From the IMG/VR virus record IMGVR_UViG_3300031998_000024, positions 32,001 to 96,000 of that record: DNA of 64,000 nt; one strand, given 5' to 3'. This DNA comes from a virus (Duplodnaviria; Caudoviricetes). This document shows, piece by piece, positions 12,664 to 37,935 of this stretch; position 1 is the first letter of the stretch; every line of letters begins with the position of its first letter. The position numbers and the translations under genes were made by a program. The notes beneath the pieces are model-generated. The model did not search any database and was not told the origin of the DNA. It was given only the letters and a program-made list of their open reading frames with translations.

Positions 12664-13269
12664 ATGGTTACACTTGAAGAAGTTTTCAGAAAGTCACAAG
12701 ACAATCTTACAAAGTCATTCGATGCAGAGAAATTCTCATCAGACATCGAAAATCTATCAAAGGCAGAAACAGAGCAATTGTTAGGTCAAATCCAAGCCGA
12801 AATCCTCAAAGGCGGCGATTACAACACGCTCACCGAAATGCGCAACATCGCATTAGGTAATATAGAGAAAGCAAGAAGCGGAGTTTATGCCGATACTCCA
12901 GAGAATCGCAAACTTGGTCGCGTAGGTCAACAGTATGGCGGCAAGGGCAGTCGCGGAGGTCAGCAAGAAGATGATGAAACAGTTAAGCAGAAAATAAATC
13001 AACGCAAGAAGAATTATTTCATCAAAACAATGAGGGATGATGGTTGTAATAAAGATGATGAAATGTTTATTTCCAGACATGAGGATAGTTTCAAAGATGT
13101 TTTGAAGAAATACGGATGGGATGGTTGGGATGATTTTTATGAAAGTGACGATTGGGATTGGAATAATGATAAGGATATTAAGAAATTTAATAAGATTTTC
13201 TTTGAATGCGTTAAGCAAATTCCAGCATCAGCGTTTGGAAAACTTTATGATGATAAACATTTCAAATAA
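12664..13269 (+). CDS. putative internal head protein (propeptide + GVYADTPENRKLGRVG tag + variable C-terminus)
   Basis: Five hydrophobic-x-K-[ASG] motifs in first 70 aa; 27-aa module shared with 13743..14669. Confidence 0.5.
   Translation: MVTLEEVFRKSQDNLTKSFDAEKFSSDIENLSKAETEQLLGQIQAEILKGGDYNTLTEMRNIALGNIEKARSGVYADTPENRKLGRVGQQYGGKGSRGGQQEDDETVKQKINQRKKNYFIKTMRDDGCNKDDEMFISRHEDSFKDVLKKYGWDGWDDFYESDDWDWNNDKDIKKFNKIFFECVKQIPASAFGKLYDDKHFK
12880..12960 (+). repeat. 81-nt coding module, copy 1 (GVYADTPENRKLGRVGQQYGGKGSRGG)
   Basis: 26 of 27 aa identical to the module at 14067..14147. Confidence 0.9.
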
Positions 13270-13286
13270 AGCAACACTTAATAATT

Positions 13287-13730
13287 ATGACTGCCCAACC
13301 AAGTTCAAATCAAGGATATGTTCCGCGCACTTATGACCAAGTTGTTGCTATAATTAATGAAACGCTTACTGGTCGTGAGGATGGTCACGAGATATTACCT
13401 GAAGAACATGAAAGTATGGCGAGAGCGATACTTGATTATGCTCGTTCAACTCAAACCAGCGGTTCATGTCCGTTAATGGGATTTGCCGATACAAAAACAG
13501 TTCCGCAGGTAACTAATGCTATGCGTTGTTTTTATGTTTCATTGGTTGGTAATAATCAAACAATGACATTTTCTAATTTTAGGGATAATTTAGGCAATTC
13601 TATAGAAGTTGATACCGATGAATTTGAAATTAAAATCGTTATCCTAATGTGGAATACATCATATTGGGAAGCGATGGAAACATCTTTGGATTTTGCTGAC
13701 TTGATAAGATTAAATATTGAAAATTCATAA
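13287..13730 (+). CDS. hypothetical (probable virion) protein
   Basis: ORF with A-rich start context in structural region. Confidence 0.5.
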   Translation: MTAQPSSNQGYVPRTYDQVVAIINETLTGREDGHEILPEEHESMARAILDYARSTQTSGSCPLMGFADTKTVPQVTNAMRCFYVSLVGNNQTMTFSNFRDNLGNSIEVDTDEFEIKIVILMWNTSYWEAMETSLDFADLIRLNIENS

Positions 13731-13742
13731 ACACATTACAAA

Positions 13743-14669
13743 ATGGATAAGCAACAATATGTTAGCGTAGGCAACATCATCGAACAAGAGCGTTTGCGCC
13801 GTCAGGCTCAAATTTCTAAGGGTATTCAATCAAACCCGATAGACCATATTGAAAAAGCCTACAATGAAGATTTCGGTGGAAATCTTGAAAAGGGATTTGA
13901 AGATGAAAATTTAATTCGCTTTGCCAGCGATATTTCTGAATTCAATAAAGCAGAAACGGAATTTGCTCTTCATAAGATTCAGCGTCAAATGAATGCTGAC
14001 CCTGAAAGTGAACTTTTGAAATCAATGCGTACTATTGCTCTTAATCATATCAATGATATTGAGAAGGGTGTTTACGCTGATACTCCAGAGAATCGCAAAC
14101 TTGGAAGAGTTGGTAAGCAATACGGAGGTAAGGGTAGCCGTGGCGGTAAGGTTCATGAAACACAATGGGAACAAGCCGCTAAATGGGATGATGCTTATGA
14201 ACAGCATTATAAGGAAAAACATCTTATGATTGATTCAAGCGGTTATCCTGCTAATAATCACCCCAAGGTTGAGCGTTTGAGAGTTATTAGCCTGAAGGGT
14301 GATAAAGCAACTCCTGAAGAGAAAAAGGAAGCAAAGGAAATTCAGGATGAAATTAAGAAGCAAACTGAAGCCTTCAAGGAAAGTGCAAAAGATTATGGTT
14401 TGAGACAAATATCTAAGACCGCTGAATCTTTTAGTAAGTATGGTCCAAGAGTTGGTGTAAACAAGATGTCTAAAAAGATGTTGGATAAGGTTGGCGCCAA
14501 TTTCGGAGTTACTTATAGCAAGGGTGATTACAATGTTGAGGCTATGTGCTATAAGGATAATGATGGTAGCGAGGTTTGGTCTGTCTATGAAGATAAAGAG
14601 GGTGGTAAGGATAAAGAGTTTGATAACGAGAAAGATGCTGTGAAATTTTTTGGTAAGTTGATAGTTTGA
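13743..14669 (+). CDS. putative internal head protein, paralogous N-terminus to 12664..13269
   Basis: Six hydrophobic-x-K-[ASG] motifs in first 110 aa, then the shared tag. Confidence 0.5.
   Translation: MDKQQYVSVGNIIEQERLRRQAQISKGIQSNPIDHIEKAYNEDFGGNLEKGFEDENLIRFASDISEFNKAETEFALHKIQRQMNADPESELLKSMRTIALNHINDIEKGVYADTPENRKLGRVGKQYGGKGSRGGKVHETQWEQAAKWDDAYEQHYKEKHLMIDSSGYPANNHPKVERLRVISLKGDKATPEEKKEAKEIQDEIKKQTEAFKESAKDYGLRQISKTAESFSKYGPRVGVNKMSKKMLDKVGANFGVTYSKGDYNVEAMCYKDNDGSEVWSVYEDKEGGKDKEFDNEKDAVKFFGKLIV
14067..14147 (+). repeat. 81-nt coding module, copy 2
   Basis: GVYADTPENRKLGRVGKQYGGKGSRGG. Confidence 0.9.
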
Positions 14670-14699
14670 TTAGTTAGTAATCCTGTTATGTATGGCATT

Positions 14700-15040: not shown

Positions 15041-15051
15041 TTTCTGAAATT

Positions 15052-16527: not shown

Positions 16528-17427
16528 ATGATTGGAATAATTTATAAATATAGTATTTTAGGAGGTTGTAAGTATTATGGACATCATCCATTTTATGTCG
16601 GTCAACATTGGGAAAGAAATAGTTTAGATGAATTCTTATCAGTTGATGCTGTTTATATTGGAAGTGGCAAAAATTGGTTGAAATTCATTGAAGAATTAAG
16701 GATAAAATATCCGTTTAAGTGGCGATATTTAATTAAGCGTGAAGTTCTATATGCCAAAGAGGATATTTCTCAAAAAGCATTAGATGCTCTTGAACAACAT
16801 TTTATTAAGAAAGAGAAAGCGCATTATTCATATAGATTAGGCGGTTGTAACATCTTATGGGGCACCGCTAATGAGTTCGGTTCAGGAAGTCCGATGAAAG
16901 ACCCGAATATTGCCGATAAAGTTATTAAACAGCTTTTAGGCAGAAAGGGTGCTAAAAGGTCTGAAATAGGTAAAAGGAATATGAGTATTGCCGCTAAAAA
17001 ATCTTGGACTGGAAAAAATGGAGAGTTGAGGAGAAAAAACTTATCGCAAAAAATGAAAGAATATTGCTCAAGACAAGATGTTAAAGAAAAGAGGTCAAAA
17101 ATAAACAAGGGAAAAACATTTTCAGAAGAGCATAGGAGGCATATATCAGAAAATCATGCTGATTTTAAGGGAGAAAAACATCCAATATATGGTAAGCATT
17201 TATCTGAAGAGACGAGAAGAAAAATAAGCAATGCTAATAAAGGAAGAAAGGTGTCTGAAGAGACGAGAAGAAAAATGTCTGAAAGTAAAAAGGAGTATTT
17301 CAAGACTCATAAAGCCCATAATGCTGGTAAGGTTGGGATATTTCATCATTCTGAAGAGACGAAAAGAATTTTATCGCAGAAACATTTAATCATAAATGCA
17401 AATAAATGTAAAAATGAAAAAAAATAA
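16528..17427 (+). mobile_element. free-standing GIY-YIG homing endonuclease with NUMOD3 repeats
   Basis: GIIY...YVGQH...YIGSG catalytic domain; repeated SEETRRKIS/SEETRRKMS and GEKHPIYGKH. Confidence 0.85.
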
Positions 17428-18433: not shown

Positions 18434-19369
18434 ATGAGCAAAGATTTAAGCGTTACCGATGCTTTTCAGAAGCATCTTGCCCAAAGAAGGGCAAACATTA
18501 TTAGAATGTTCAACAATCCTGAAGATGCTGTTGGCATTAGTAAAGCCGAAGAAAATGACGACTTTGAAGAAGATGACGACAAGATGAAGAAGGGTTGTGG
18601 TGACGGCAAAGAAATTGAAAAAGAAAATCCTGAAGAAACTGAAATGGAAAATGAGGATTCTGAAGAGGATGAAGATGAGAAGACAGATGCTGAAAAGGCT
18701 GAGTTAATTGACCTGATTGGCGTGGAACAATTGGATGTTTGGAAGGCTGAAATTGATGAATTGGCTACTAATTACGATTCTTTCAATGAAACCGAAAAGG
18801 CTGAAAAGATGCAAGCAATTGATACTGAAATCAATGGTTTCGCTGAAGTTTCAGGCTTAGAAAAATCCGATATTCTGTATGCTTTAAGCGGTTATGATAC
18901 CAAGTTTAAGTTCCGCAAGACTGGTAAGGAAATTAAGGAACAAATCAACACCGCTGTTATTCCTGGTCTTAATGCTAAACTTGCTACTGCGAAAACTGAG
19001 GCTGAAAATTTGTTGAAGGAATGCGGTGATGCTCCTACTCATGATGTTCCAGAGTATTGGACTGGTGAACTGCATATTGAAATGCCTTATAAGTATTACG
19101 AATGGGATGAAACAAGGGTTCCTGAAAATAATCCTTCTATCAGCGTTGTTGCTTCATTCTCACCCGATTCTTATAAGCAGCGTTGTTGTAAGAATGCTCC
19201 TGCTTCTCCTGAAGAGGCTGAGATGCGTTGCAAGTATAATGAACAGATTCGTAAGATTTGTAATATCACAACCGATATTAAGGCTTGCGAAATTGTGTCC
19301 AAGAATTTGAAAGATAGCGAGGGTGTTGAACTTAATGTTCGTCAATTGCTTGCTTTCAAGTTCGTTTAA
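18434..19369 (+). CDS. acidic putative internal head / scaffold-like protein
   Basis: Acidic N-half with repeated ISKA, MKKG, AEKA, VWKA, TEKA, LEKS. Confidence 0.4.
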   Translation: MSKDLSVTDAFQKHLAQRRANIIRMFNNPEDAVGISKAEENDDFEEDDDKMKKGCGDGKEIEKENPEETEMENEDSEEDEDEKTDAEKAELIDLIGVEQLDVWKAEIDELATNYDSFNETEKAEKMQAIDTEINGFAEVSGLEKSDILYALSGYDTKFKFRKTGKEIKEQINTAVIPGLNAKLATAKTEAENLLKECGDAPTHDVPEYWTGELHIEMPYKYYEWDETRVPENNPSISVVASFSPDSYKQRCCKNAPASPEEAEMRCKYNEQIRKICNITTDIKACEIVSKNLKDSEGVELNVRQLLAFKFV

Positions 19370-20913: not shown

Positions 20914-20921
20914 GGTTTGAA

Positions 20922-21263: not shown

Positions 21264-21313
21264 CAATTATTAAAGAGTAGTAGTAAGAAGTTTAACAAAT
21301 AAATCTATTCATT

Positions 21314-22018: not shown

Positions 22019-22053
22019 ACATACCTTTGTTTGAGAATATTTTTCATTTGATT

Positions 22054-22084
22054 TCGGCAGGGCATTCGTGTTCTGCCGATTTTT
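22054..22084 (+). terminator. intrinsic terminator
   Basis: TCGGCAGGGCA-TTCG-TGTTCTGCCGA plus T-run. Confidence 0.85.
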
Positions 22085-22146
22085 ATTTTTAATAAACAAG
22101 TGTTTCAGATATAAATTGAAAAAGTATAAATAAATAGAATTGTAAA

Positions 22147-23916
22147 ATGCCAAGTTACGCAGACCAATTGAAAGCAGTAGATATGGCTGAGCAGAAACTC
22201 ATGGCTAAGAGATTCCGACTGATAGAAAAAGCAGCTAAATCAGATAATCCAACGGATATGATTATGGCTGCTCAAGTTGTCGATAGGATTCAGAAAAAGT
22301 CGAGTAATGAAGCAAAGGCTTATTTGATAGACCCGTTGCAATTTAGTGCTAATTTAGGGTATAAGGATAAAATCTTTTCACTTACATACACCACTCTCAG
22401 GAGAATGGCGAAAACGCCAATCATAAATTCTATTATCAAAACCCGTAAGAATCAGATAGCAGACTTTGCAGAGCCTCAGGCTGATAGATACAATACAGGT
22501 TTTGTTATCAGAAAGAAACCGATAGGAGGTGTTGAACAAAAGATGGATAATAAGGATAGAAAAATTGCTAATGCTATTACGGATTTTATTCTTAATTGCG
22601 GAGGCAGTAATTCTTGGACGAGTGATGATTTTGATTCCTTTATAAGAAAGATTGTTGAAGATTCCTTAACATTTGACCAAATGACATTTGAATGTATAAG
22701 GAATAGAAGGGGTAAACTTGAATATTTTTTAGCAACCGATGCTTCAACATTCCGAATTGCTGAAAGTGCTTTTAGGTCTGATTATGATAATGATTTCTTT
22801 CATAGACTTGGTTCAGGAGTTTACGCTGATGAAAATTTGAATAACTTGAATAAAAAGATAAATGGTTATTATCCTCAATATGTTCAGGTTTATCAAAACG
22901 CGGTTGTTAATGAATTCTATCCTTGGGAATTATGTTTTGGTGTTAGAAATCCATCAACTTGGATAAACGCTAATGGTTACGGATGTAGTGAGTTAGAAGA
23001 TTTGATTAATGTAATTACATCATTACTTTGGGGTGATGAATACAATCGTAGATTCTTCAGTCAAGGTTCAGCACCGAAGGGATTGTTAAGGATTAAGGGA
23101 GGTATGAATGAAAAGGCTATGCAACAATTTAAGCAACAGTGGCAAGCCATGATTTCAGGTGTTATGCAATCTTGGAAAACTCCAGTAGTAGAAGCGGATG
23201 TTGATTGGATAGATTTGCAAAAGAATAACCGCGATATGGAGTACAACTCCTGGATGGAGTATTTGATAAAACTTGCTTGTGCTATCTATTCAATTGACCC
23301 CACGGAAATAGGTTGGGACATTTCACGCTCAGCTGGAAATTCAGGACTTTATGAAGCATCTCAAGCAGAGCGTTTACAACATTCAAAAGACAAGGGGTTG
23401 TATCCTATTTTGAAATTTATCCAAAGAAAACTTAATAAGTATATCGTTGAACAAATCAATCCTGAATATGAATTTGTGTTTATGGGTTTGAATGGTATGA
23501 CGATTGAAAAAGAGTTGGATATGGATATTAAGAAAATCGGTTCATTTGCTACTGTGAATGAAATCCGTGAAAAGTGGGATATGAAGAAGATTGATGATAT
23601 TGGAGATATTATTGAAAATTCAGTTTATTTCCAAGCATATAATCAAAAGAAACAAGCGGAAATGCAACAGCAACAGCAGCAAGGAGGCTTTGGAGGAGGT
23701 TTTGAGGATTACGAAAATGAGGGTGGTGAAGAAGATGATAATTGGAATCCGTTTGAAGATTACGAAAGCAATGACGAGGGTGGTGGAAACGAGAGTGAGG
23801 AACAGCCTTCAGAAGAAAACGAAGAGGGTAATACAGAAAATGAAGAAAAAGCCGTTAGCAATGTTTTCGTAAAGGCTTTTGAAAATTACTTAGAACAAGA
23901 AATAAATAAAGGGTAA
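22147..23916 (+). CDS. portal protein (SPO1/Twort-like)
   Basis: IIKTRKNQI, FIRKIVEDSLTFDQ, YGCSELE, YNRRFFSQGSAPKGLL, DMEY..WMEYLIK...IDPTEIG, SKDKGLYP. Confidence 0.9.
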   Translation: MPSYADQLKAVDMAEQKLMAKRFRLIEKAAKSDNPTDMIMAAQVVDRIQKKSSNEAKAYLIDPLQFSANLGYKDKIFSLTYTTLRRMAKTPIINSIIKTRKNQIADFAEPQADRYNTGFVIRKKPIGGVEQKMDNKDRKIANAITDFILNCGGSNSWTSDDFDSFIRKIVEDSLTFDQMTFECIRNRRGKLEYFLATDASTFRIAESAFRSDYDNDFFHRLGSGVYADENLNNLNKKINGYYPQYVQVYQNAVVNEFYPWELCFGVRNPSTWINANGYGCSELEDLINVITSLLWGDEYNRRFFSQGSAPKGLLRIKGGMNEKAMQQFKQQWQAMISGVMQSWKTPVVEADVDWIDLQKNNRDMEYNSWMEYLIKLACAIYSIDPTEIGWDISRSAGNSGLYEASQAERLQHSKDKGLYPILKFIQRKLNKYIVEQINPEYEFVFMGLNGMTIEKELDMDIKKIGSFATVNEIREKWDMKKIDDIGDIIENSVYFQAYNQKKQAEMQQQQQQGGFGGGFEDYENEGGEEDDNWNPFEDYESNDEGGGNESEEQPSEENEEGNTENEEKAVSNVFVKAFENYLEQEINKG

Positions 23917-23921: not shown

Positions 23922-25829
23922 ATGCCATTAGGAGAAACTACTAACATAGGACAAATTGCTGCATTATGGATAGCGGCAACTGCTCCTACTAATACAAAAT
24001 TGATTTGGTATGATACGGCGCAAAATATACATCGTATCTATGAAACAACGACTGGTAACTGGATTGCTCTGAATCCTCAGGCTGTTACTAATAGTACCAT
24101 TTCTGCTTTGACTGTTATTGCTCAAGGCACTGGTATTGCAATAGGTAAGTTTTTCTATCTTACTGATGTTGGTACATTAGCGATTGCTTTAACATCTACT
24201 AAGATTTGGTATGTAGATACTCATAGTAATTATATAGTCAACGATTTGGCTGCCGCTATTCAGTATTACATAAATTCCACTAATCTTTATATTGATGGTA
24301 ATGCTGGCGTTTGGAATACATCAACTGGTAGGCTTGAATTTACCTTTACAGAAGAAAATTCATTAAACCAAACAAATGATTATGTTGTTATTAGACGAAA
24401 GAATGGAAGCGTTTGGAGTTGGGTGAAATCAAAGATTTCTAATTTTATTTCAACAGTTGCTAATAATAGCATAATTTGGAATAATGGAATTTATTTTAGT
24501 TTCAGCGCAAACATAAATAGTATCTTGAATCAATCGGGTGGAATTGTGGGTTATGACCAATATCTAACTGATATTCAACTTTTGGTTCAAGATATAAATA
24601 ATGTTGCGTTAGATAACCAAAACTATTTGCAACAAGCCAAGACATATACCGATTCTAAGACTACCGCTGCTGAAATATATGGTAAGGGATTACCTGCTGC
24701 TATTACGCCATCAGCCGTTACTCAGACAGCGCCAGTTGTTGGTTGGAGCATTAATCGTATTCTTCAAGATATTTACGGATGGTTTGGAAATCTGAAGTAT
24801 GCTAATAACATCAATGTTGGTATAAATTTCAATCCAGCTGGTAGTGATGGCAATGTTGACGCTACAGATAGCGTAATGCTTGCTATTCAAAAGTTGGTTA
24901 AGAAGGTCGCTAATTTATACGTTGCTTGTTCAACGGCTGCTCTAAGGTTATCCGCAGGATGGGCTCCATATTCATATTGGGGTACTGTTCCCGATGTTGC
25001 TGCTAATGATACAGTTGATACTGCATTTTCCAAATTAGTTGGAAGAATGAATCAACTTGGTATAATAACTAATGGTGTATTAAAGTCAAGAGAAATACAA
25101 CAAAGTCAATATAATACGCTTTTTGAAATAGAGGCTGGTAGATTAGAAATTGGTGAGGTTGATGACCAAGAAACAGTTAGAGTTTCTTTAAGTAATGACG
25201 GTATTCAAATGGAAGACCATTTTTTAGAACAAGATGATTTAATAATAAAACCAAGAAAAATATCTCAATATAATCATCAAATTGATAATTATTCTCAATA
25301 TTATGATGCTGATTATTTCTTTGGCGCAGAATTTCTTGTAAATGGTGTTGATACAAGTCATTGGAGTCAATCTTCATTTGGAGCGGCATTAGTCGGTATG
25401 ATTACTATTGGAGGATATAGAAAATTATACGGATTATATTCAAATAAAGCGTTATTAAGAAGTTTGCATTTTAAGCAAGCTACATTTACATTTTCAGATA
25501 CAAGTCGTTATTTGTATATGAGTGAAAGTCAATCGTTTGTAAGAGTTGTATCGAGTTATGGATATAGTGGAGTTGCTTATTTGTATTTACCGCCAGTTTC
25601 TGATTCTGATTTTGAAATGGTTTTCTTTGTTTCAGTAGAAGCAAATGGATTAGGATTATATATTCAAGCATCAAGCGGTGCTGAAATAGAAATAGGTAAT
25701 GGTTCAACAGCAGCGTCAATTCAAGGTACTGAAGGTGATTTGTTTATGTTTATATTCAGACCTGGATTCTTTTTCCGTGGATTGCAATATAATGAAGGCA
25801 CCTGGAGTTGTAAATTAATAAATCATTAA
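23922..25829 (+). CDS. tail fibre / receptor-binding-like virion protein
   Basis: APTNTKLIWYDT N-terminus; internal DSVMLAIQKL / DTVDTAFSKL repeats; beta-rich C-terminus. Confidence 0.55.
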   Translation: MPLGETTNIGQIAALWIAATAPTNTKLIWYDTAQNIHRIYETTTGNWIALNPQAVTNSTISALTVIAQGTGIAIGKFFYLTDVGTLAIALTSTKIWYVDTHSNYIVNDLAAAIQYYINSTNLYIDGNAGVWNTSTGRLEFTFTEENSLNQTNDYVVIRRKNGSVWSWVKSKISNFISTVANNSIIWNNGIYFSFSANINSILNQSGGIVGYDQYLTDIQLLVQDINNVALDNQNYLQQAKTYTDSKTTAAEIYGKGLPAAITPSAVTQTAPVVGWSINRILQDIYGWFGNLKYANNINVGINFNPAGSDGNVDATDSVMLAIQKLVKKVANLYVACSTAALRLSAGWAPYSYWGTVPDVAANDTVDTAFSKLVGRMNQLGIITNGVLKSREIQQSQYNTLFEIEAGRLEIGEVDDQETVRVSLSNDGIQMEDHFLEQDDLIIKPRKISQYNHQIDNYSQYYDADYFFGAEFLVNGVDTSHWSQSSFGAALVGMITIGGYRKLYGLYSNKALLRSLHFKQATFTFSDTSRYLYMSESQSFVRVVSSYGYSGVAYLYLPPVSDSDFEMVFFVSVEANGLGLYIQASSGAEIEIGNGSTAASIQGTEGDLFMFIFRPGFFFRGLQYNEGTWSCKLINH

Positions 25830-28022: not shown

Positions 28023-28199
28023 ATGGCTAAACATAATCATGATAAGGATTCTCATTTCATACCAAGTCCGCATAAAGTTGTTACTGGGTATGAAAATGCT
28101 TTTATCAGCGATTGGAATAATACACTTTCAGCCGCTGTTGGCGATGTTTTGAAATATATAGCAAAAGTTACATCTGAAAATATTAAACAAAATGGATGA
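28023..28199 (+). CDS. 58-aa hypothetical protein not in ORF track
   Basis: MAKHNHDKDSHFIPSPHK...ENIKQNG; fills the gap and overlaps the next start. Confidence 0.6.
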   Translation: MAKHNHDKDSHFIPSPHKVVTGYENAFISDWNNTLSAAVGDVLKYIAKVTSENIKQNG

Positions 28200-29355
28200 C
28201 ATTATTAGACAAATACCTATCAGCGATAAAGAGGAGGCTGAATGCATATTAAAGGCAATTGATACCGATATAATGTTTGATGAGTTAATTAAGGCTCATA
28301 ATGTCGGTGATTTATTTTTCCAAAACGGAAAGACCTATGTTTGGACTGAATACGCTCCAGGAAAATTTGATTGGCATGTTTTGAAAAACAATAGAGTTGT
28401 TCGTGGTAGCGGTATCAATGGTCTTCATGGTAAAAAGGCTTTGGAAAAGGCTTTTTCCGATATTGATAAGGGATTTACCGATAAAAGTAAAATGCTGTTG
28501 CGTCGCACTCCTAATAGGCATTGGCGTCTGTTTTACGATGGTGATGATATAGGTATGACGATAGATGGAAGCAGTATAACCGAATCTGAATTGCGTGAAG
28601 CTGATGTTGTTTATCAAGATAAGAAGGTTGTTGATAATTTCGATTCTTTGAAAGATTACATGGAATTTTCAAGTTCTGATGATGTTTATTTCGTTCAGAT
28701 AATTAAGCGTTGGAAAGATAATAAGGATAAACCAGATGCTGATAAATGGAAGGCAGAGGGAAGACAGAAGGGTTCATATCATTCGGGTGCTGAATATTTG
28801 AATTATTGGCTGATACATTCCACTGATGAATTAGAATCTTTGAAAGACGATATTATGAAGGTTTGCGGATACAACAATGCAAGAGCCTACATAACTATCA
28901 ATAGCAGAAAACAGAGTCAAGTAAATCAATACATTGGTCAATTTAAGAGCCGCTTTTCAGACCCGAATGACCCAAGAGTTAAGAATGCTGAAGCGATACT
29001 TTATGGTATGCCTAAGACTGGACCAAATTGGCGCAATGAGCGTTTAAGAGTTTTGCTTGATATAGATACAACGAGTGATAAGATTGTAAACATTAATGGT
29101 AAAACCGTCAATGTTTGGGATGAAACAGAAAGACGATTGAAAGCATTAGGAATTAAGGTGGCTGCTCGTTACGAAACACCTTCAGGTGGTTTACATCTTA
29201 TTCTTAATAATAAGAATAATCGCAACCTTCGTGATTTTTACAGAGGTTTGTCTGATTTTGACGGAGGTAGAAATTTAGGTGTTACCGCTACAGTTCATCC
29301 ATCTGATGATACAAAGATGATTCTTTATTCTAATGTTGATACAGCAGGATATTAA
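28192..29355 (+). CDS. tagged putative head protein with AEP/Prim-Pol-like domain
   Basis: RVLLDID (DxD) and ETPSGGLHLI motifs; N-terminal KAHNVGD...WTEY.PGKFDW tag. Confidence 0.6.
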   Translation: MDDIIRQIPISDKEEAECILKAIDTDIMFDELIKAHNVGDLFFQNGKTYVWTEYAPGKFDWHVLKNNRVVRGSGINGLHGKKALEKAFSDIDKGFTDKSKMLLRRTPNRHWRLFYDGDDIGMTIDGSSITESELREADVVYQDKKVVDNFDSLKDYMEFSSSDDVYFVQIIKRWKDNKDKPDADKWKAEGRQKGSYHSGAEYLNYWLIHSTDELESLKDDIMKVCGYNNARAYITINSRKQSQVNQYIGQFKSRFSDPNDPRVKNAEAILYGMPKTGPNWRNERLRVLLDIDTTSDKIVNINGKTVNVWDETERRLKALGIKVAARYETPSGGLHLILNNKNNRNLRDFYRGLSDFDGGRNLGVTATVHPSDDTKMILYSNVDTAGY

Positions 29356-29366: not shown

Positions 29367-30836
29367 ATGGTTTTATCTCAAGCACAAATTGATGATATTG
29401 TTGCTATACTTCAGCAACATCAATTAACATTTATCGCTAAACAGTTGGGTGTTAATTATCTATTAGCAACTGATAGGGCTATTCTTGTTGCTCATGGAGT
29501 TGATTTAAGTAAGTTCGCAAATTCTCAAGGAATAATAGAACAAGCGTATTTATTTGGTTTACTTTCACAAGCAATGGATGATAAACGAGCAAAGAATATG
29601 ACTTATGCTCAATTCAAGAAGTTTATCAAGTCAGGTCAGTTTGTTCCGCTTACGGATGAAGAGGAATTTGTGCTTGAGCAAGTTAAAAACCAGTCATACA
29701 ACGACATTAGTGGTTTAGGCAGTAAGATTATACAAGGCACTAAAAATATCGTTGTACGGGCAAATTTAAGAACACAGAATAATATAAGGAATATAATCAA
29801 AAACAAGGCTATTGATGCTGTGAAATTCCGTCAATCTGCTGCAAAAATGGCTTCTGAAATAGGTCATGCTACAGATGATTGGGAAAGAGATTTTTTGAGG
29901 ATTTCCTATTATGTACTTCAGAATGCTTATAATTACGGAAGGGCAAGGTCTATTTACAGAGAACATGGAGAAGATGCTGAAGTTTATTTCGATATCTTAA
30001 AGGGTGCTTGTAAACATTGTCGTGAATTGTATCTAAAAGACCCTGATGATGAAAATAGTGAGCCGATTGTTTTTAAGTTAAAGGATGTTCTTGAAAATGG
30101 AAATAATATTGGTAGAAAAGTAGCAGATTGGTTGCCAACTGTTTCTCCAATACATCCTTATTGTCGTTGTAATATACGATTCAAAGACCCGAATATGGAA
30201 TGGGATGAAGAAACCTTATCATTTACCAAACCAAGGGTCTATAAACCTAAAAATAAAAAGTTACAAGGTGTTAAGTTAGATATTAAGGTAACAAAATCTG
30301 ACGATGACGAATTAAATAAAGAGAGTTTCAAACAGCGTTTAGAAAATGCTAAATCTGAAACAAATACTGAACCAACTGAAGCAGAAATTAAGGCTGGAAA
30401 CTATAAGAAGGGTCATGTATCATTCGGAGGTTATAATTTCGTGATTGAGAATCCAAAGGGAAGTGAAAGAAGCGGAGTTGATAAGGATGGTAAGCGTTGG
30501 AGTATTACGATGAATAATACATATGGATATTTCCTTGGAATAATCGGTAAGGATAAAGACCATATTGATGCGTTTATCAACGATAATGCTGATTTAGATA
30601 ATTTCCGTGGTAAGATTTATGTTATTGACCAGGTTAATAAAGATGGTAGTTTTGATGAACATAAAATAATGTATGGATTTAATTCTATGCGTGAAGCAAA
30701 GGCTGCTTATTTATCAAATTACGAAAAAGGTTGGAAGGGATTAGGTCGTATAACAGCTGCTCCTAAGCCAGTATTTGATAGGTGGATGAAGCGAAGTAAA
30801 AGAAAACTAAAACCATTTAGTTCGTATCAAAGTTAA
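29367..30836 (+). CDS. MuF/SPP1 gp7-like head protein fused to InPase domain
   Basis: ACKHC and PIHPYCRC (MuF); PTEAEIKAGNYKKGH...IENPKGS.RSG...YGY...GKDKDHID...DEHK (InPase of polyvalent proteins). Confidence 0.85.
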   Translation: MVLSQAQIDDIVAILQQHQLTFIAKQLGVNYLLATDRAILVAHGVDLSKFANSQGIIEQAYLFGLLSQAMDDKRAKNMTYAQFKKFIKSGQFVPLTDEEEFVLEQVKNQSYNDISGLGSKIIQGTKNIVVRANLRTQNNIRNIIKNKAIDAVKFRQSAAKMASEIGHATDDWERDFLRISYYVLQNAYNYGRARSIYREHGEDAEVYFDILKGACKHCRELYLKDPDDENSEPIVFKLKDVLENGNNIGRKVADWLPTVSPIHPYCRCNIRFKDPNMEWDEETLSFTKPRVYKPKNKKLQGVKLDIKVTKSDDDELNKESFKQRLENAKSETNTEPTEAEIKAGNYKKGHVSFGGYNFVIENPKGSERSGVDKDGKRWSITMNNTYGYFLGIIGKDKDHIDAFINDNADLDNFRGKIYVIDQVNKDGSFDEHKIMYGFNSMREAKAAYLSNYEKGWKGLGRITAAPKPVFDRWMKRSKRKLKPFSSYQS

Positions 30837-31623: not shown

Positions 31624-31624
31624 T

Positions 31625-33070
31625 ATGAAAATTTTAATATCATCATTTACGATAGCAAAACAAGGTGGGATAGTTCAATATATCCATTCGATGATTCAAG
31701 CCTTTAAGGAATTGGGTCATGATATAGATATTGTTGAACTTGCTCCTAATCGTATTACAGAAAGTGCATACAAGAGTAAGTTTGAATCCATAAAGAGTGG
31801 GGAATATCAACGCAAGATAGTTCCCCATTCTCAGTCAGGAGGTTACTGCTTTGATGAATCAAGCGGTTATTTTTTCAACACTTATTACGGATATTTTTTG
31901 CCACCGAGTAATAAAATTTGCGTATTTGATTCTGATGCTGTGGAGCGTTGGTATAAACTTGTTTCAGATGTAGATATTATTCTTTGGAATTTTATGCCAA
32001 CTAAAACCCGTGAATGGCAAAAGAAGGGTACAAAATTTGATTATTGGTGGAAGTTTTTTGATTTACCTAAATCTGTTAAGCAGGTTTTTCTTACTCACGA
32101 TGCTTATTTTAATATAAGAGCAAGTAATGTAACTGCATTGAAAAAGAAAATTTTGTTTCTTGGTTGCGCTCATTTAGCCGCTTATCAATGTTGTTCTGAA
32201 ATTGGTATAAGAAGAACATTGTTGTTGAATCCAAGATATATAGAGAAAAACGCAAGTATGCCTGTTGTTTCTTTTAATGACAGAAAAACAGATTTCTTTG
32301 CTGCTCATATGTTTAAGCCTATGAAACATATGGAAGAGTTAATTGCCGCTATTCCGTATGTTAATAAGGGTGATGAAACTTATTCTTGTATGGTTGCTGG
32401 AACTGGCATAGAGTATTCTTACATGACCAGTGAAGATAAAATAAAACCATGTTATTTATGCAGTAAGAAGCGTGACCCTAATTTACCAGATAAACTTGAT
32501 GGTAAAATTAGTTTATGGAATAGAGCCTTAACATTTGGTATGGATTATAGAGGTCAAATGAGCGGTGACGATGTTTATAAACAATTATTGAATACTAAAT
32601 TTGCTATTGACCCATCTTGGGCAACTCACTATGCTCAATATTGTCGTACTCATATAAACGGCTTTATCATTGAGGCTATGATGTTAGGTGCTTATCCTGT
32701 GTTAAGGGATTACAGAGGATTAGATAAAGCAAATAGCAATGTTTATGACCCATTGTTTGAGAGTATTAATGCTGTAATAATTCCGTGGGATGCTACACCT
32801 AAACAATTTGCTAAAATTTTGAAATCCGCTATTGCTGATATGACACCAAAGCGTTTTTTGAGAGAAACGAAAGAAAATTTCCAAATAGTAAACGAATTAT
32901 TTAATGCTCGTAAAAATGCCGAAGAAATAATTAGATTATGTCGCGGAGGTAAACGATTAGTCAAGGCAGAATTGGAAAAAGGTGTTGATTCAGATAATGT
33001 GAAGAAAATATCCGAAGATATTATGACAAATTTCTTTGGAATTGAATTACCAATCAAATGGCAGAATTAG
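31625..33070 (+). CDS. GT-B fold glycosyltransferase
   Basis: MKILI...GGIVQY...LGHDIDIV; THD; FKPMKH; FAIDPS...IIEAMMLGAYPV. Confidence 0.8.
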   Translation: MKILISSFTIAKQGGIVQYIHSMIQAFKELGHDIDIVELAPNRITESAYKSKFESIKSGEYQRKIVPHSQSGGYCFDESSGYFFNTYYGYFLPPSNKICVFDSDAVERWYKLVSDVDIILWNFMPTKTREWQKKGTKFDYWWKFFDLPKSVKQVFLTHDAYFNIRASNVTALKKKILFLGCAHLAAYQCCSEIGIRRTLLLNPRYIEKNASMPVVSFNDRKTDFFAAHMFKPMKHMEELIAAIPYVNKGDETYSCMVAGTGIEYSYMTSEDKIKPCYLCSKKRDPNLPDKLDGKISLWNRALTFGMDYRGQMSGDDVYKQLLNTKFAIDPSWATHYAQYCRTHINGFIIEAMMLGAYPVLRDYRGLDKANSNVYDPLFESINAVIIPWDATPKQFAKILKSAIADMTPKRFLRETKENFQIVNELFNARKNAEEIIRLCRGGKRLVKAELEKGVDSDNVKKISEDIMTNFFGIELPIKWQN

Positions 33071-33129: not shown

Positions 33130-35409
33130 ATGACAAAAACAACCAAACAAGTAAAAGTTGGTGATGTTAAGACCGTAAACGATGTGGAATACATTTGTAA
33201 GGGTTTTACATCTAATGGTAAACCAATGTGGCGTAAGAATGAAATTGAAAAGGCTCATAATGTTGGTGATGCACACCCGTCAAAACCTTGGGTGTGGACA
33301 GAATATAAGCCTGGAAAATTTGATTGGCGCCCTGTGAAGAAAAAAGATGGTGATGCCGGCAAGACTGGTGGAGCCGCTACATCTACTCAACAGCAACAAC
33401 CTAAATCGCAAAATCAAGGACAAACTCAACCTTCTACTGACGGTGCTAAGAAGAGTGGAAAACAAACCGCTCAACAGCAACAGCCTAAGAAAATTGATAA
33501 GAAGGTTGAAGATATGACACCCGATGAATTAGCTGAATACGCTAAGGATGCTTCAACTGAGGCTTTGGCTAAGGTTGTTAATGACAAAAACCAAGACAAG
33601 GGATTTCGTCAATTAGCGTTCAATGAATTGAAAAAGCGTGATGATTATGACCCTGAGTCGGTTTTTAGTGAAGATTTGGAAGATGGATTTTTCCCGATTC
33701 GTAAACCCACTATTGAATACAAGAAAAAGAAGCCTGAAATTCCAGTAAATAGTTATCAGATTAAGGATTATGAAACTCAAAGCAATACTGGAAGAATTAA
33801 GGTAGGTATCAATAAAACTCGTGCTAATTACAGAAATCGTACTGATGACCAAATACTTGGTACTTTGAATGATGTTCGTGCCAGGTATCAACTTCGTCAA
33901 CTTGCTTATGAAGAAGCAATGGCGCGTGGTATTCCTGAAGATAAAATTAATGTTCGTGGTACACTTGAATCTTTTTGGAAGGATGTTGCTTATGAAAAGC
34001 AAATGCAGGATGCTAAGTCAAAGCCTCTGAATCCTGAAGAGGGTGCTGAATTGGTGTACGATTGGAAGGGATTGGACCATGAAGCAATTATGCACGATGA
34101 ATTTGATGATGGTGAAGACCCGATATGGCTTGACGACAATTCAGACAAGGTTAAGAGAATATTTCATACCGATACTTTGTCAGGTCGTCAACGCTATGAT
34201 ACATTTAAGGATTATTATCAAAGAAATCCTGACCTTGTTCCGTATTACCTTAATGCTACTCAAAAAGTTGATATGCTTAATGGCGATATGTATGAGTGGG
34301 CAAAGAGCGATGTTTCACCCTTATTCGTATCAGCTGGTGGAGCAGGTGCTGGTAAGACCTATGGTTGGAAAGAGATTGTTGCTAAGCATTTGAATCTACC
34401 TGAATTAAAACCTGGTCAAGACCCGTCTAACGGAGATTGGGGTTATGTAATGCTTTCAAACGAGCAGGCTGAAGATAAGGAGAAATTCACAAGAACGCTT
34501 GCTAAATATAACGGAACATATATTGATTCCAATGGTAATGAGAAACCTCATATCTTAGTTTTCGATGATTCCGATAAATTGCTTATCACTAAATCAAAGG
34601 ATTTGATTGCGTTGATGAAGAAAATCAACGATGGTGAACCAAGCAATCGAATATTTACCAATCCCGATACTGGTCAACAGGAAGTTTGGAGAGGTAAGAT
34701 TATAATCATGACTAATAAGGATTCTGGTAAGTTGCAAGCAGGTAATGAAGATGTTACCGCAATCTTCAGTCGTGGTACTGTTAGCGATATTCGTTTCACC
34801 CGTAATGAAACAATGGAATTACTTGCTAACAGATATATGACTATGGCGTTACCTAAGTGTCAGAATACATTTGAAGAACAGAATTTCACCGATGAAGAGA
34901 TTGAAGATTTCCGTCAGGATATTTACAATTATATGTCTAAACATATTGGTGATGCTGACCCTGCTAAATTCACTCCAAGAGCGTTCTTGAATATTGCAGA
35001 ACATGTTGCTCCAAGATGGAAGGGTTCAAAGGTGATTAGAACTGGTAAGGGTAACATAGGTGTAGATTTGCCGTGGCAAGTAACTGCTCTCAGTATCATT
35101 AAAGCCGAAAACAACGATATTGAAAAGGCTAATGAGGATAGCGAGTTTTCAAACGAAAACATGAAGAAAACAAAAGAGCGTGTTTTGAAGCGTATAGAGC
35201 AAGCCAAGAAGGATGGTTCGTATGAAGCACTTTATGGTATGGAGGCTCAAAATGCTATGTTGTTTGGTGACCCGCGTACTGAAGAAGAAAAGAAAAAGGA
35301 TGAGAAAAAAGAAGCAAAGCAAGACAAGAAAAATAAGAAGGAGGAAACCAAGAAGGGGTTTGATGATGAAATGAGTCTTGCTGAAGCTGAATCGCTTTTA
35401 TTTGGTTAA
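33130..35409 (+). CDS. tagged putative head protein with AAA+ ATPase domain
   Basis: Walker A GGAGAGKT, Walker B ILVFDDSD, sensor-1 IIIMTN, Arg finger AIFSR; N-terminal tag shared with 28192. Confidence 0.75.
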   Translation: MTKTTKQVKVGDVKTVNDVEYICKGFTSNGKPMWRKNEIEKAHNVGDAHPSKPWVWTEYKPGKFDWRPVKKKDGDAGKTGGAATSTQQQQPKSQNQGQTQPSTDGAKKSGKQTAQQQQPKKIDKKVEDMTPDELAEYAKDASTEALAKVVNDKNQDKGFRQLAFNELKKRDDYDPESVFSEDLEDGFFPIRKPTIEYKKKKPEIPVNSYQIKDYETQSNTGRIKVGINKTRANYRNRTDDQILGTLNDVRARYQLRQLAYEEAMARGIPEDKINVRGTLESFWKDVAYEKQMQDAKSKPLNPEEGAELVYDWKGLDHEAIMHDEFDDGEDPIWLDDNSDKVKRIFHTDTLSGRQRYDTFKDYYQRNPDLVPYYLNATQKVDMLNGDMYEWAKSDVSPLFVSAGGAGAGKTYGWKEIVAKHLNLPELKPGQDPSNGDWGYVMLSNEQAEDKEKFTRTLAKYNGTYIDSNGNEKPHILVFDDSDKLLITKSKDLIALMKKINDGEPSNRIFTNPDTGQQEVWRGKIIIMTNKDSGKLQAGNEDVTAIFSRGTVSDIRFTRNETMELLANRYMTMALPKCQNTFEEQNFTDEEIEDFRQDIYNYMSKHIGDADPAKFTPRAFLNIAEHVAPRWKGSKVIRTGKGNIGVDLPWQVTALSIIKAENNDIEKANEDSEFSNENMKKTKERVLKRIEQAKKDGSYEALYGMEAQNAMLFGDPRTEEEKKKDEKKEAKQDKKNKKEETKKGFDDEMSLAEAESLLFG

Positions 35410-35430
35410 TAATTTCAAAAGCCTGAAATT

Positions 35431-37935
35431 ATGAAAAAGAGCAGAAAGGCTTTGGAGACAATTGCCCTTGGATATTCTGAGGGCATTGTCTCTGTTGATA
35501 TTTTGATTAAGGCTTGTAATCATTATAAGTTACAAGAGAATCTTGTTGGTAATTTTGAATATGATAAGAAAGTATCAAAGTCTTTATTTGACCAACTTAA
35601 TGGTGTTAAACCTAATAAAGAATTATTGAAAGCAATAGTTCCTGGTCAAACTAAATATGTTGATGGCGTTCTTTATATTTATTCCGCAACCAAACAAGGT
35701 AGTAAAACCGATTACGGATGGCATGTCGCTCAAAAGTCTAAGGTCGGTAAGGGTTCAACGCTTGATGATAAGGCTGCTAAGGCTGCTGAGAGTGCGGTTA
35801 ATGAATTATTCCCAGTAGATATAGCGAGTGTTACTGAAGTTAAGCGTTTAGGCGGTTCAACAGGTGCTAAACTCGTTAAGGATGTTAAGGGTAATGAATA
35901 TGTAATGAAGCGTGTTGATAAGTCTATAAATCCGAAGGGAAATGCTGAGCATATCCGTTCAGAGTATGTGGCCAATATGCTTTATAACATCTTAGGTCAA
36001 CGCACTCCTGATTATGAACTTTATGATGCTGATACCGATGACCCGAAACTTTTAAGCAGATTTATTCCAGGAACAAGACAGCCTAATAGTAGAGATTTTG
36101 CTAAAATGTCTGAAGGCTTTATAGCAGACATTCTTTTGGCTAACTGGGATGTTTATATGAACGACAATTGCTTAATTGATGCTGGTGGTAATGTAATTAG
36201 GGTTGATAATGGCGGTTGTTTAGCGTTTCGTGCTAAGGGTGAATTAAAGTCGCCTCCGTTTGATGGTGATGTGAATCGTACATACCGAGATATGTTGAAC
36301 TACAACAGTTTGTTAGCAAAATATCTTGTTGACGAAAATGTTGTTCAACAGATTGATAACGCTTTGGCTAAGCGTGATGATATTGTTAATTTCTTGAAAG
36401 AATCGGGGGATGATAATTTAGCAAACATCTTTGGACAGAGAATAGATGGATTGAAAACTATTCGTGACCAAATCAATGCTAATATTGCTCGTAAGGCTGC
36501 CTTGGCCGCTGCTAAAGCAGGTAAGATACCTCCGAGAAAACTCATGCCTAAGCAAGAAATGTATCGTGCCTTAGAGGATGATGAGTTAGAGGATGTTTTC
36601 AATGAAGTTGCTCAGATGTGCGGTGGTCAAAAAGATAGAGCGTTGACTAATACAGATTCAACATTCGGTTGGTCTATATTATCACGGATTTGTCAATTAC
36701 GCGGATTTGATGCGAGACCAAAAGTTGTAACAGAAGCGGATTTTTGGAAAGAGGCTGCTAAGGCTGATTTGCCATTAATGTTAAGAGGTAATGCTTCAGG
36801 TGGCGGTAAAACCGCTGGTGAGTATGCTGATATGTTCCGTTATGACGATGTTTGTTTTTATGGAAAGGCAGGAATTTGGGGACAGGGTATTTATGCCCAT
36901 ACGGATGATAAAAACGACAAATGGATTAGGTATCAATCTAAGGCTGATGACTATGACCGCAAAGATGATGTGAATTTACATTCAACGCAAACTAACTATA
37001 AATCAACTCAAGGATATATTGATGCATTTTCTTATGCTGGTAGTAGCGATGAAGGTGTCTTGAAGATACTTTGGGAAAAGGGAGCGAATGTTGTAAATAT
37101 TGAAGACCTTATAAACGAAATTAAGGCTACACCTCCTCAATTGAAGGATAAAAAATTGTTTGCTACAATTCAATCTTTACAAAAACAGTTGAATACTGTT
37201 AAGAGTGAATGGACAAACGCAAAACTTGCTCTTCAGAATATATCTAAAACTATTCAAGATACAGTGCGTAAGAAAATGCACTATGATGAAGATGCTATTG
37301 CTGAGATGTATGACACAATCGATAATACCGATTGGGGAAATCGTAATGCTCAAGGTAAATTTGATTATCCTTCTTATGATGACTTTGTAGTTGGTAAGAT
37401 GGTTGAGTGGGTTACTAAGAATGGCGGTAAGGCTAAGATTGATAAGGATTTTGTTGTATTTGAAATCAATGGTCAAAGAGAATCAATAGCAAGAGAATCT
37501 TGGGAAAATAACGCTATACGAAGAAAAAGTGCTATCACTTCACCATATCATTATCAAGCAGAATTATTTAAGACCTTTATGGAAACAAACTGTATAGGTA
37601 AAGTTCAAAAGGCTATTGATTTTGCTTTGAGACATTCGACTGATGCTACTGCTAAGGCTCAGGCTGAAGCTGATACCAAAGAAAAGGAATATTACAAGAT
37701 TGACGCTGATTTGAAGCAAGCGATGCAGAACAGTGTTAGTGATTCCTTGTATTCATATATTTATAGCAAAGTTAAAGGATTAGGATTGCGTGATAGCGGC
37801 GACAATATGTCAGTCGTTGGTATTTATGCTGCTATGAAGGGATATGATGGTATCTATATTCACAACGGCAATGATTGGAATCATGGCTTTAATGTGATAT
37901 TGAACAGAAGTAAGGTAATAACATCAATGGAGTAA
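35431..37935 (+). CDS. putative head protein: HipA/PI3K-like kinase + ADP-ribosyltransferase-like domain
   Basis: LGGSTGAKL..YVMK, EYVAN.LY, LANWDV..DN, RVDNG (kinase); LMLRG, GIWGQGIY, GYDGI...VILNRS (ART-like). Confidence 0.65.
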   Translation: MKKSRKALETIALGYSEGIVSVDILIKACNHYKLQENLVGNFEYDKKVSKSLFDQLNGVKPNKELLKAIVPGQTKYVDGVLYIYSATKQGSKTDYGWHVAQKSKVGKGSTLDDKAAKAAESAVNELFPVDIASVTEVKRLGGSTGAKLVKDVKGNEYVMKRVDKSINPKGNAEHIRSEYVANMLYNILGQRTPDYELYDADTDDPKLLSRFIPGTRQPNSRDFAKMSEGFIADILLANWDVYMNDNCLIDAGGNVIRVDNGGCLAFRAKGELKSPPFDGDVNRTYRDMLNYNSLLAKYLVDENVVQQIDNALAKRDDIVNFLKESGDDNLANIFGQRIDGLKTIRDQINANIARKAALAAAKAGKIPPRKLMPKQEMYRALEDDELEDVFNEVAQMCGGQKDRALTNTDSTFGWSILSRICQLRGFDARPKVVTEADFWKEAAKADLPLMLRGNASGGGKTAGEYADMFRYDDVCFYGKAGIWGQGIYAHTDDKNDKWIRYQSKADDYDRKDDVNLHSTQTNYKSTQGYIDAFSYAGSSDEGVLKILWEKGANVVNIEDLINEIKATPPQLKDKKLFATIQSLQKQLNTVKSEWTNAKLALQNISKTIQDTVRKKMHYDEDAIAEMYDTIDNTDWGNRNAQGKFDYPSYDDFVVGKMVEWVTKNGGKAKIDKDFVVFEINGQRESIARESWENNAIRRKSAITSPYHYQAELFKTFMETNCIGKVQKAIDFALRHSTDATAKAQAEADTKEKEYYKIDADLKQAMQNSVSDSLYSYIYSKVKGLGLRDSGDNMSVVGIYAAMKGYDGIYIHNGNDWNHGFNVILNRSKVITSME

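Follow-up and report, generated by a model that had tools for sequence, protein, structure and literature searches.

Prohead proteases of HK97- and T4-type systems act inside assembled procapsids. In phage T4, non-structural proteins enter the prohead core by means of an N-terminal leader, which the prohead protease then cuts off, and the mature proteins remain with the DNA and are injected (PMC10052503). The T4 leader can be transferred to foreign proteins (Mullaney & Black 1996, cited in PMC10052503), and T4 Alt as a head-packaged, injected protein is summarised in PMC5512222. In SPN3US and phiKZ, ejection proteins and the portal bear long propeptides with multiple sites, which are cut into small fragments, and the gp175/gp245 protease of phiKZ, 201phi2-1 and SPN3US, which recognises an A/S/G-x-E motif, also cuts itself (PMC10052503). 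Fusions of the InPase domain are predicted to be packaged and injected as polyvalent proteins (Iyer et al. 2017, PMC5512222). Here, a 64,000-nucleotide stretch of the phage genome IMGVR_UViG_3300031998_000024 (the window, bases 32001-96000 of a complete genome of 123,871 bp) is analysed, in which clusters of predicted cleavage sites mark a series of proteins between window positions 12664 and 37935. About a dozen proteins of this phage, including the portal, a kinase-like protein, an ATPase, a primase-like protein and small uncharacterised proteins, are, judged by their sequences, most likely loaded into the head and trimmed there. The closest cultured relatives, by the portal and capsid genes, are the DAC16-group Bacteroides phages and Chryseobacterium phage MA9V-3, followed by SPO1-like Bacillus phages. 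The phage is a phage of gut Bacteroidota with head genes of the SPO1/Twort type, and the region considered is the portal-proximal half of its head-morphogenesis block, split in this genome from the half that holds the protease and capsid genes.

The site motif is [ILVFM]-x-K-[ASG], with a cut predicted after Lys (h-x-K↓[A/S/G], the arrow marking the predicted cut). Its density is tested over the first 110 residues of each protein, within a genome-wide set of 146 open reading frames (ORFs). Two short modules occur next to the sites: tag A, with the core Y-x-D-x-x-x-N-R-x-L-x-R-V-G, and tag B, with the core W-x-W-T-E-Y-x-P-G-K-F-D-W. The genes concerned are listed below, with window positions in nucleotides (nt) and protein positions in amino acids (aa); the last two entries lie outside the window and carry genome positions.

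12664..13269, + strand: small protein of 201 aa; leader aa 1-70 (nt 12664-12873) with five sites, the last being IEK↓A at nt 12862-12873; tag A at nt 12874-12942 (core e.g. 12883-12942), then a G/S/R linker and a payload of ~100 aa.
13743..14669, + strand: tag-A protein of 308 aa; leader aa 1-109 with six sites, the last being IEK↓G at nt 14058-14069; tag A at nt 14070-14129.
18434..19369, + strand: protein with an acidic N-terminal extension (~aa 1-146) holding three to four sites, and a conserved C-terminal part of ~170 aa with a weak DUF1351 match.
22147..23916, + strand: portal (Pfam Phage_portal); N-terminal IEK↓A at nt 22222-22233 and C-terminal FVK↓A at nt 23866-23877.
23922..25829, + strand: protein of 635 aa directly after the portal, with weak head-fibre/connector matches.
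28192..29355, + strand: tag-B protein of 387 aa; sites at aa 19-22 and 32-35 (LIK↓A, nt 28285-28296); tag B at nt 28297-28377; primase-like (AEP-like) core at ~aa 148-387.
29367..30836, + strand: head-block protein fused to an InPase domain; linker site V-T-K↓S at nt 30288-30299; InPase at nt 30381-30791.
33130..35409, + strand: P-loop/AAA+-like ATPase of 759 aa; IEK↓A at nt 33244-33255; tag B at nt 33256-33330; Walker A at nt 34336-34359; C-terminal site pair at nt 35095-35130, ahead of a K/E-rich tail.
35431..37935, + strand: protein of 834 aa; propeptide-like N-terminal region aa 1-108 (nt 35431-35754) with five sites; protein-kinase-like domain at ~aa 120-355 (nt 35788-36495).
Genome 20213-21775, outside the window: protease-scaffold fusion of 520 aa; first ~165 residues match PHROG 1028, head maturation protease (E 2e-33).
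Genome 21806-23290, outside the window: major head protein, PHROG 752 (E 2e-86).

Every hydrophobic-x-K-[A/S/G] site that the initial annotation of the window had listed, as maturation sites of eight head-associated proteins, is present in the ORF concerned. The expected difference in density is also found: the first 110 aa of the eight proteins contain 30.7 sites per 1000 aa, versus 4.0 in all others. The motif is not enriched over the genome as a whole, where it occurs at 5.2 per 1000 aa against 4.2 expected from composition. The eight-protein comparison is post hoc, the proteins having been chosen by eye, and three unbiased tests were therefore added. In a scan of the 146 ORFs, six have at least four sites in their first 110 aa, where 0.16 would be expected (P ~2e-8); with paralogous leaders counted once, four independent leaders are left (P ~2e-5). 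The six high-scoring ORFs are 13743, 35431, 12664 and 28192 in the window and those at genome 18192 and 120937 outside it, 13743 having the highest N-terminal site count of the whole genome. Shuffles of each protein's own composition give P <0.003 for 12664 and for 13743. Nine control motifs, with reversed order, R/E/D at P1, other P1' classes or shifted spacing, are flat. The site clustering is real and lies far above chance; a composition artefact, considered as its cause, is rejected on the control motifs and the shuffles. The T4-like Glu site h-x-E-[ASG] occurs neither in the scaffold fusion nor in the eight leaders (0 in each).

For ortholog comparison, six complete relatives were fetched, whose proteases are 40-65% identical to the one encoded here. 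Genome-wide, at least two conserved sites are found only in the protease-scaffold (9), the capsid protein (2), the portal (2), 18434 (2), 33130 (2) and 35431 (3). The remaining ten conserved sites are singletons in replication enzymes, at the same level as the eleven singletons given by a control motif. In the portal, the N-terminal site near residue 25 and the C-terminal site 8-19 residues before the end are both present in 7/7 genomes, and N-terminal portal sites are present too in SPO1, Kayvirus, DAC16 and MA9V-3. The orthologs of 33130 in the six relatives keep the N-terminal site and the C-terminal pair, and those of 35431 carry four to five N-terminal sites in register. The orthologs of 18434 align only in the C-terminal part; each of their N-terminal extensions nonetheless holds 2-7 sites, although 18434 taken alone is a weaker case, with few sites in this genome. 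The VTKS linker site of the InPase fusion is conserved only in part and is likewise a weak item alone. The 23922 protein, directly downstream of the portal, has no leader sites here and none conserved in the relatives, providing an internal negative control.

The protease that would read these sites is located outside the window. Its domain is 33-36% identical over ~160 aa to annotated Herelleviridae prohead proteases of Staphylococcus, Bacillus, Listeria and Enterococcus phages, and the rest of the 520-aa fusion is acidic, helical and scaffold-like. The fusion, which was beyond the view of the initial annotation, contains 16 sites versus 2.5 expected from its own composition (P ~1e-8). Scaffold site densities per 1000 aa are 31 here, 45 in SPO1 (11 sites in 244 aa, all h-x-K-S), 22 in Kayvirus (7 sites in the 316-aa protein between the protease and capsid genes) and 39 in MA9V-3 (21 sites in the 532-aa protease-scaffold), compared with a background of 4-5. 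In metagenomic relatives the density of the fusion ranges from 23 to 39 per 1000 (7 of 10 relatives, those whose fusion ORF was picked by script), and P2 shows no clear preference at 98 scaffold sites pooled from relatives.

The capsid protein leads to the same cleavage point. Its matches include SPO1 gp6.1 (PDB 9vel, E 5e-81) and the capsid protein of phage 812 (E 4e-20), and it carries LNK↓A at residues 30-33, aligned with the LNK↓A of SPO1, in accordance with the earlier suggestion that the major capsid protein outside the window should bear this type of site. LNK↓A or LQK↓A occupies the aligned position of the capsid N-arm in this phage, SPO1, DAC16, MA9V-3 and the relatives. The Kayvirus capsid precursor has VVKS at residues 22-25. 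In the PDB, the 463-aa Kayvirus precursor (5lii) and a 439-aa mature chain (9row) differ by an offset of 24, placing the mature N-terminus at the Ser after VVK. The mature Kayvirus chain thus begins right after VVK↓S, which fixes the cleavage specificity. The rule of Lys-Ser/Ala cutting, stated at the outset for SPO1/Twort-like proteases, holds in this lineage on the evidence of the Kayvirus chain, the scaffold densities and the capsid N-arm; a literature search turned up no explicit statement of the Herelleviridae cleavage site. A homologous protease, the family cleavage motif, and sites on both capsid N-arm and scaffold are all present, as in a substrate set of the SPO1/Twort type (HK97 gp4-like).

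In the relatives, the cargo genes are positioned between the portal and the protease-capsid genes, with a 35431-type gene near the protease on its upstream side, and an 18434-type gene lies within the head block there and in DAC16. Two relatives, G001 and G008, have a single uninterrupted block from the 18434-like gene to the capsid protein. It begins with the 18434-like gene, 5-hmdU DNA kinase, portal, 23922-like gene, small proteins, a tag-A gene and a tag-B gene, and continues with a homologue of the N-terminal part of the InPase fusion, deacetylase- and transferase-like genes, the ATPase, the kinase-like protein, small proteins, the protease-scaffold and the capsid protein. Since the block is contiguous in these relatives, the named proteins belong to the head module itself, beyond mere neighbourhood. 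In the present genome, the protease-scaffold, capsid, tail and baseplate genes (genome 20213-44630) are located upstream of the portal-to-kinase-like block (window 12664-37935), so that the protease-capsid-tail part lies ~30 kb upstream and not directly after the block as in G001 and G008.

As had been noted from the window, a site sits directly before a conserved module in five proteins. The module is tag A for 12664 and 13743 and tag B for 28192 and 33130; in 35431 it is a tag-B-like beta unit. Six genes of the genome contain tag A, of which two (12664 and 13743) lie in the window. A 95-aa leader is common to 12664 and the genes at genome 18192 and 120937, with 87-91% DNA identity that includes ~48 bases upstream of the start, and carries unrelated payloads in its three genes. 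There is no Pfam or PHROG family for the leader, tag or payload of 12664; leaders, tags and small payloads are silent even at E up to 5, and the tag-A leader has no tblastn match in cultured phages. A pattern scan of IMG/VR identifies 55 tag-A loci, in which the site ends 0-6 residues before the tag in 33/33 non-redundant copies, usually with a second site ~15 residues further upstream. All 10 complete tag-A contigs tested encode the protease-scaffold fusion. One IMG/VR protein ends in tag A, and the predicted cut there would remove the tag. DAC16 has five copies of tag A, whereas SPO1, Kayvirus and MA9V-3 have none. No Pfam model covers the tag, and a literature search on its core gave unrelated papers only.

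A profile search of 1.84 billion representatives with tag A yields 1,667 clusters in two classes. Phage-type proteins contain one to three copies, with 38 sites per 1000 aa upstream of the tag versus 4 downstream, and payloads that include NUDIX and Zeta-toxin domains; the site stands before 117 copies, and nearly all copies lacking it look animal-type. The second class comprises tandem-array proteins with up to 13 copies, joined by Ser-rich linkers and placed in front of a protein kinase domain, the named ones coming from the snail Biomphalaria pfeifferi and the starfish Acanthaster planci. In these animal kinase arrays, a site occurs at only 4/281 tag-A copies. The near absence of the site from the animal copies shows that it does not belong to the structure of tag A itself. 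Across the sequences compared, the site accompanies tag A where the Lys-specific protease is encoded.

Tag B, a three-strand beta unit in its models, follows a site in 8/10 copies from seven genomes. The G001 ortholog of 33130 has tag A near its C-terminal end in place of the N-terminal tag B. In MA9V-3 (ORFs at locus 3379, 6371 and 14001), a small G-G-R-x-Y-I...D-G-W-K-Y unit is found on an ATPase, twice on a 520-aa protein, and at the C-terminal end of a Nudix hydrolase, in the last case directly after an IEK↓S site; this unit may be a third tag of the same kind. With an N-terminal tag, the predicted cut leaves the tag on the mature protein; with a C-terminal tag, it would remove it, as on the MA9V-3 Nudix protein, whose end is tag-B-like. 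The order, site and then tag, is constant and points to a unit that docks to, or is recognised by, the protease-scaffold or the shell. Tentatively, tags A and B could be portable docking peptides that bind a fixed procapsid partner, either the scaffold-protease, the inner face of the capsid or the portal, and that would form with the adjacent site a universal load-and-trim cassette by which this large family of Bacteroidota phages would swap injected payloads through recombination; tag A would then be an ancient protein-binding peptide, also used on invertebrate kinases. We hold this proposal to be possible, with the odds somewhat against it.

The payloads differ in how clearly they resemble enzymes. 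The N-terminal region of 35431 consists, in its AF2 model, of four helices, the tag-B-like beta unit and a disordered linker holding the fifth site. The model, built from 63 sequences, has a predicted local distance difference test (pLDDT) score of 86, and the following domain matches CtkA (VIA-align, Z 13.2, 196 residues aligned, root-mean-square deviation 3.6), CotH (Z 12.1), PI4KIIa (Z 12.0) and actin-fragmin kinase (Z 11.2), with Foldseek recovering the kinase-like fold at E ~1e-4. Residues G142, S143, T144, K160, E178, D240, N244, D245, N246, D259, N260 and G261 are invariant in the 63 sequences. The kinase label given to this gene is supported by the bilobal fold, with its CtkA and Foldseek matches, and by the invariant catalytic-type residues; ~aa 120-355 are modelled as a protein-kinase-like fold with putative kinase activity. 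The 118 homologues retain the site at 27 in 113 cases, that at 50 in 117 and that at 67 in all 118, with at least 8 different residues at P2 of one of these sites, and the first 115 aa hold 41 sites per 1000 versus 4.9 beyond. The accompanying label for an ADP-ribosyltransferase (ART) is not borne out: there is no Pfam match, no PDB profile match and no likeness to the ART end of the protein of Pseudomonas phage Jeremy, and the Atlas yields only weak structural leads for the C-terminal half. The kinase-like domain recurs in two cultured-phage proteins that end in an ADP-ribosyltransferase exoenzyme, those of Jeremy (5066-8707) and Escherichia phage ECML-606-1 (1988-8749), of 1,213 and 2,253 aa.

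The 33130 protein has Walker A and B motifs, with GGAGAGKT at residue 403 and an hhhhDD motif. RFC subunits match only at E 0.1, and one homologue is flagged PF00004. Of its AAA+ label, the motif part stands and the RFC matches are weak; these motifs suggest an AAA+-like ATPase. All 46 non-redundant members of its family have the site preceding tag B, and the two C-terminal sites are kept in 44 and 38 of them; no tblastn match is found in cultured phages. For 28192, the AF2 model (pLDDT 76) has RepB' primase as its top VIA-align match (Z 7.6 over residues 148-387), further AEP primases follow at Z 4.7-5.5, and Foldseek returns no significant match. DxD (D290, D292) and GGLH (G332-G333-L334-H335) are invariant. 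The RepB' match and the two motifs make 28192 a possible AEP-like primase, a weakly supported assignment. All 27 sequences of its family (non-redundant at 80%) carry the site that precedes tag B, and 20 of them carry the one at 21. At the sequence level, PDB profile searches with 35431, 33130 and 28192 give no usable matches.

The InPase of 29367 is a clear Pfam match (PF18823, E 3e-49, residues 339-475), as first labelled, with DarB-like and minor head proteins among the PHROG matches of this part. In orthologs, the N-terminal 310 aa stand alone or occur in other fusions. The name MuF given to that N-terminal part is unconfirmed: PF04233 has no match anywhere in the genome, Pfam and PHROGs are silent on residues 1-308, and the hints consist of the location after the portal and a Cys/His motif seen by eye, nothing more. 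Thus, of the modular propeptide-tag-cargo system that the initial annotation had put forward, the arrangement read by an SPO1/Twort-type Lys-specific protease is well supported in silico and the enzyme set is mixed, with the kinase-like fold and the InPase supported, the AAA+ assignment based on motifs, the AEP assignment weak, and the ART and MuF labels unconfirmed.

The proposed course of events is the following. A prohead protease in the procapsid core would cut after Lys in h-x-K↓[A/S/G]; the fusion of protease and scaffold builds the protease into that core. Proteins presumably bound for the procapsid (the portal, 35431, 33130, 28192, 18434 and at least six small tag-A proteins) carry N-terminal, sometimes C-terminal, extensions packed with sites, in most cases with the last site bordering tag A or tag B, and the extension, the tag or both would bring them into the assembling core. 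The protease would then shred the scaffold and the leaders into small peptides that exit the shell. The leader extensions, which are helical and have the same site density, probably share the fate of the scaffold, being cut up and leaving the shell. The mature cargo, in most cases now starting with the tag, would remain inside with the DNA and would probably be expelled into the host upon infection. Substrates of a protease that works only inside the procapsid must themselves be inside the procapsid, and we consider it likely, with reasonable confidence, that the named proteins are protease substrates inside the head. Actual cleavage, presence in the virion and injection are what we infer from the sequences. 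Ejection into the host and an effector role appear plausible because of the enzyme-like folds and the fast turnover of payloads on constant leaders.

Several points weigh against this account. DNA-modification genes without site clusters are interleaved in the block, and position alone is no proof. SPO1 and Kayvirus have no non-scaffold protein with a site cluster despite the same protease and site, so that the protease by itself does not imply cargo; the Bacteroidota-phage branch seems to have added the cargo leaders and tags. Cleavage specificity is deduced from a single deposited mature chain together with motif statistics. Some stretches of the leaders (35431 aa 1-68, pLDDT ~80) form well-conserved helices and may be a functional domain instead of a disposable propeptide. 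As head cargo, a large ATPase and a primase-like enzyme would be out of the ordinary. Two tag-B copies are without a canonical site, and the presence of tag A in animal kinases indicates that its basic activity is not capsid-specific. No virion proteome or N-terminal data were found for the phage or its relatives, the MA9V-3 literature being only partly covered.

The main rival accepts some or all of these proteins as real prohead substrates and makes them assembly helpers, such as core or scaffold-like factors, portal-vertex chaperones or DNA-modification helpers, which would be destroyed or stay in the head and form no injected arsenal. In both composition and site density the leaders do resemble scaffold, several of the payloads are small with no fold that can be recognised, and the 18434-like and tag-A genes are always in the head block. 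On the other side stand payloads with enzyme-like folds and invariant catalytic-type residues (kinase-like, P-loop ATPase, InPase), the recurrence of the kinase-like domain in giant ART-bearing proteins of cultured phages, and a rapid payload turnover on a constant leader that is typical of host-directed or anti-defence proteins. On balance, we regard assembly helpers as unlikely, though a serious contender.

Far less probable is that the motif clusters are no cleavage sites at all, arising as a by-product of helical, K-, E- and A-rich leaders or of tag folds, with the site beside tag A belonging to a longer conserved motif. Control motifs of similar composition are not enriched, the own-composition shuffles of 12664 and 13743 exclude chance at the level given above, P3, P1 and P1' are kept while P2 varies freely, animal tag-A copies exist without the site, and the same motif marks the capsid maturation point and the start of the mature Kayvirus chain. 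Processing in the cytoplasm, switching the proteins on or off late in infection with no packaging, is just as improbable; the sites flanking internal or C-terminal segments, namely the 33130 pair and the InPase linker, could separate domains in this way. It is opposed by the fusion of protease and scaffold throughout the lineage, by the position of the cargo genes between portal and protease in the relatives, and by the established action of such prohead proteases inside assembled procapsids. Loading into the head followed by trimming is accordingly the explanation we prefer.

The surroundings of these genes are as follows. The window has a G+C content of 34%, with almost every gene on one strand. 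A gene with a NUMOD3 motif at window 16528-17427, probably a homing endonuclease, lies directly ahead of a flap nuclease gene, which is placed between it and 18434 in the gene list based on Pfam and PHROG. A 5-hmdU DNA kinase gene lies between 18434 and the portal gene, several small proteins are encoded between 23922 and 28192, and two genes, with starts at 30934 and 31625, separate the InPase fusion from 33130. Genes for the 5-hmdU DNA kinase, a thymidylate-synthase-like enzyme, a dUTPase and a radical SAM/SPASM enzyme are scattered over the genome, some within the head block (window 19783-20913, 30934-33070, 38422-38859 and 48940-50148; genome 19092-20084), and together suggest hypermodified thymidine in the phage DNA. 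By eye, no common promoter is seen upstream of the cargo and head genes, the only likeness being the repeat-derived one among the leader copies. The record is complete and has an exact direct terminal repeat of 127 bp (genome 1-127 and 123745-123871); the genome is probably terminally redundant or circularly closed. Tandem DNA repeats of 54-bp period and ~90-97% identity occur at genome 474-958, inside the ORF 111-1178 with a DUF7666 domain.

If the preferred explanation is true, protease-coupled head loading extends from T4 and the phiKZ-like giants to a third, unrelated class of protease and specificity, in a large family of gut and rumen Bacteroidota phages that has hardly been studied. It would supply a sequence rule for capsid riders, namely an end segment with at least two conserved h-x-K-[ASG] sites and, in many cases, tag A or B after them, and would make the predicted cargo proteins candidates for early host takeover or counter-defence. 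Two short portable modules without a Pfam model are named, one of them in more than 1,600 protein clusters. A practical route for loading foreign proteins into Bacteroides phage capsids is also suggested. Ordinary tryptic proteomics is blind to the predicted cuts because trypsin also cuts after Lys.

Compared with the described systems, the arrangement follows the same leader-load-trim principle as the internal proteins, Alt and gp21 protease of T4. The T4 leader measures ~10-20 aa, contains one site and is cut after Glu in L/I-x-E by gp21, whereas here the leaders span 30-110 aa, contain 2-6 sites with a retained tag module, and are predicted to be cut after Lys by an SPO1/HK97-like protease fused to the scaffold, not a gp21-like one. 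Membership in a T4-type system is rejected, as h-x-E-[ASG] is missing from scaffold and leaders and the protease is of SPO1 type. With phiKZ, 201phi2-1 and SPN3US, the phage shares multi-site N-terminal propeptides and paralogous cargo with common propeptides; these phages differ in protease family and P1 residue and have giant T=27 capsids with an inner body, and a portable short tag beside the last site, like tags A and B here, is not described for them in the cited literature. The InPase of 29367, fused to a head-block protein beside the portal, belongs to the repertoire of polyvalent proteins (PMC5512222), and the recurrence of the 35431 kinase-like domain in ART-bearing proteins of 1,200-2,250 aa in cultured phages is polyvalent-like. 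Polyvalent proteins string their domains on one giant protein processed by an embedded peptidase, whereas the proteins here are mostly separate polypeptides with their own leader or tag, their processing is assigned to the prohead protease, and a Pfam MuF match is lacking.

The Herelleviridae (SPO1 and Twort/K-like phages) share a homologous protease, scaffold, capsid protein and portal, and the same h-x-K↓S/A on the capsid N-arm, repeated in the scaffold. In SPO1 and Kayvirus the clusters are confined to protease and scaffold and tag A is absent, whereas in this phage clusters are also present on the cargo. The cargo-loading peptides of encapsulins, short portable end peptides that dock cargo inside an HK97-fold shell, offer an analogy only, with no sequence similarity claimed, and encapsulins have no protease step. 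In conclusion, the principle is known; new with respect to the searchable literature are its adoption by an SPO1-type protease class specific for Lys, the portable cassettes of site plus tag, the broad occurrence of these cassettes among uncultivated Bacteroidota phages, and a peptide shared with animal kinases.

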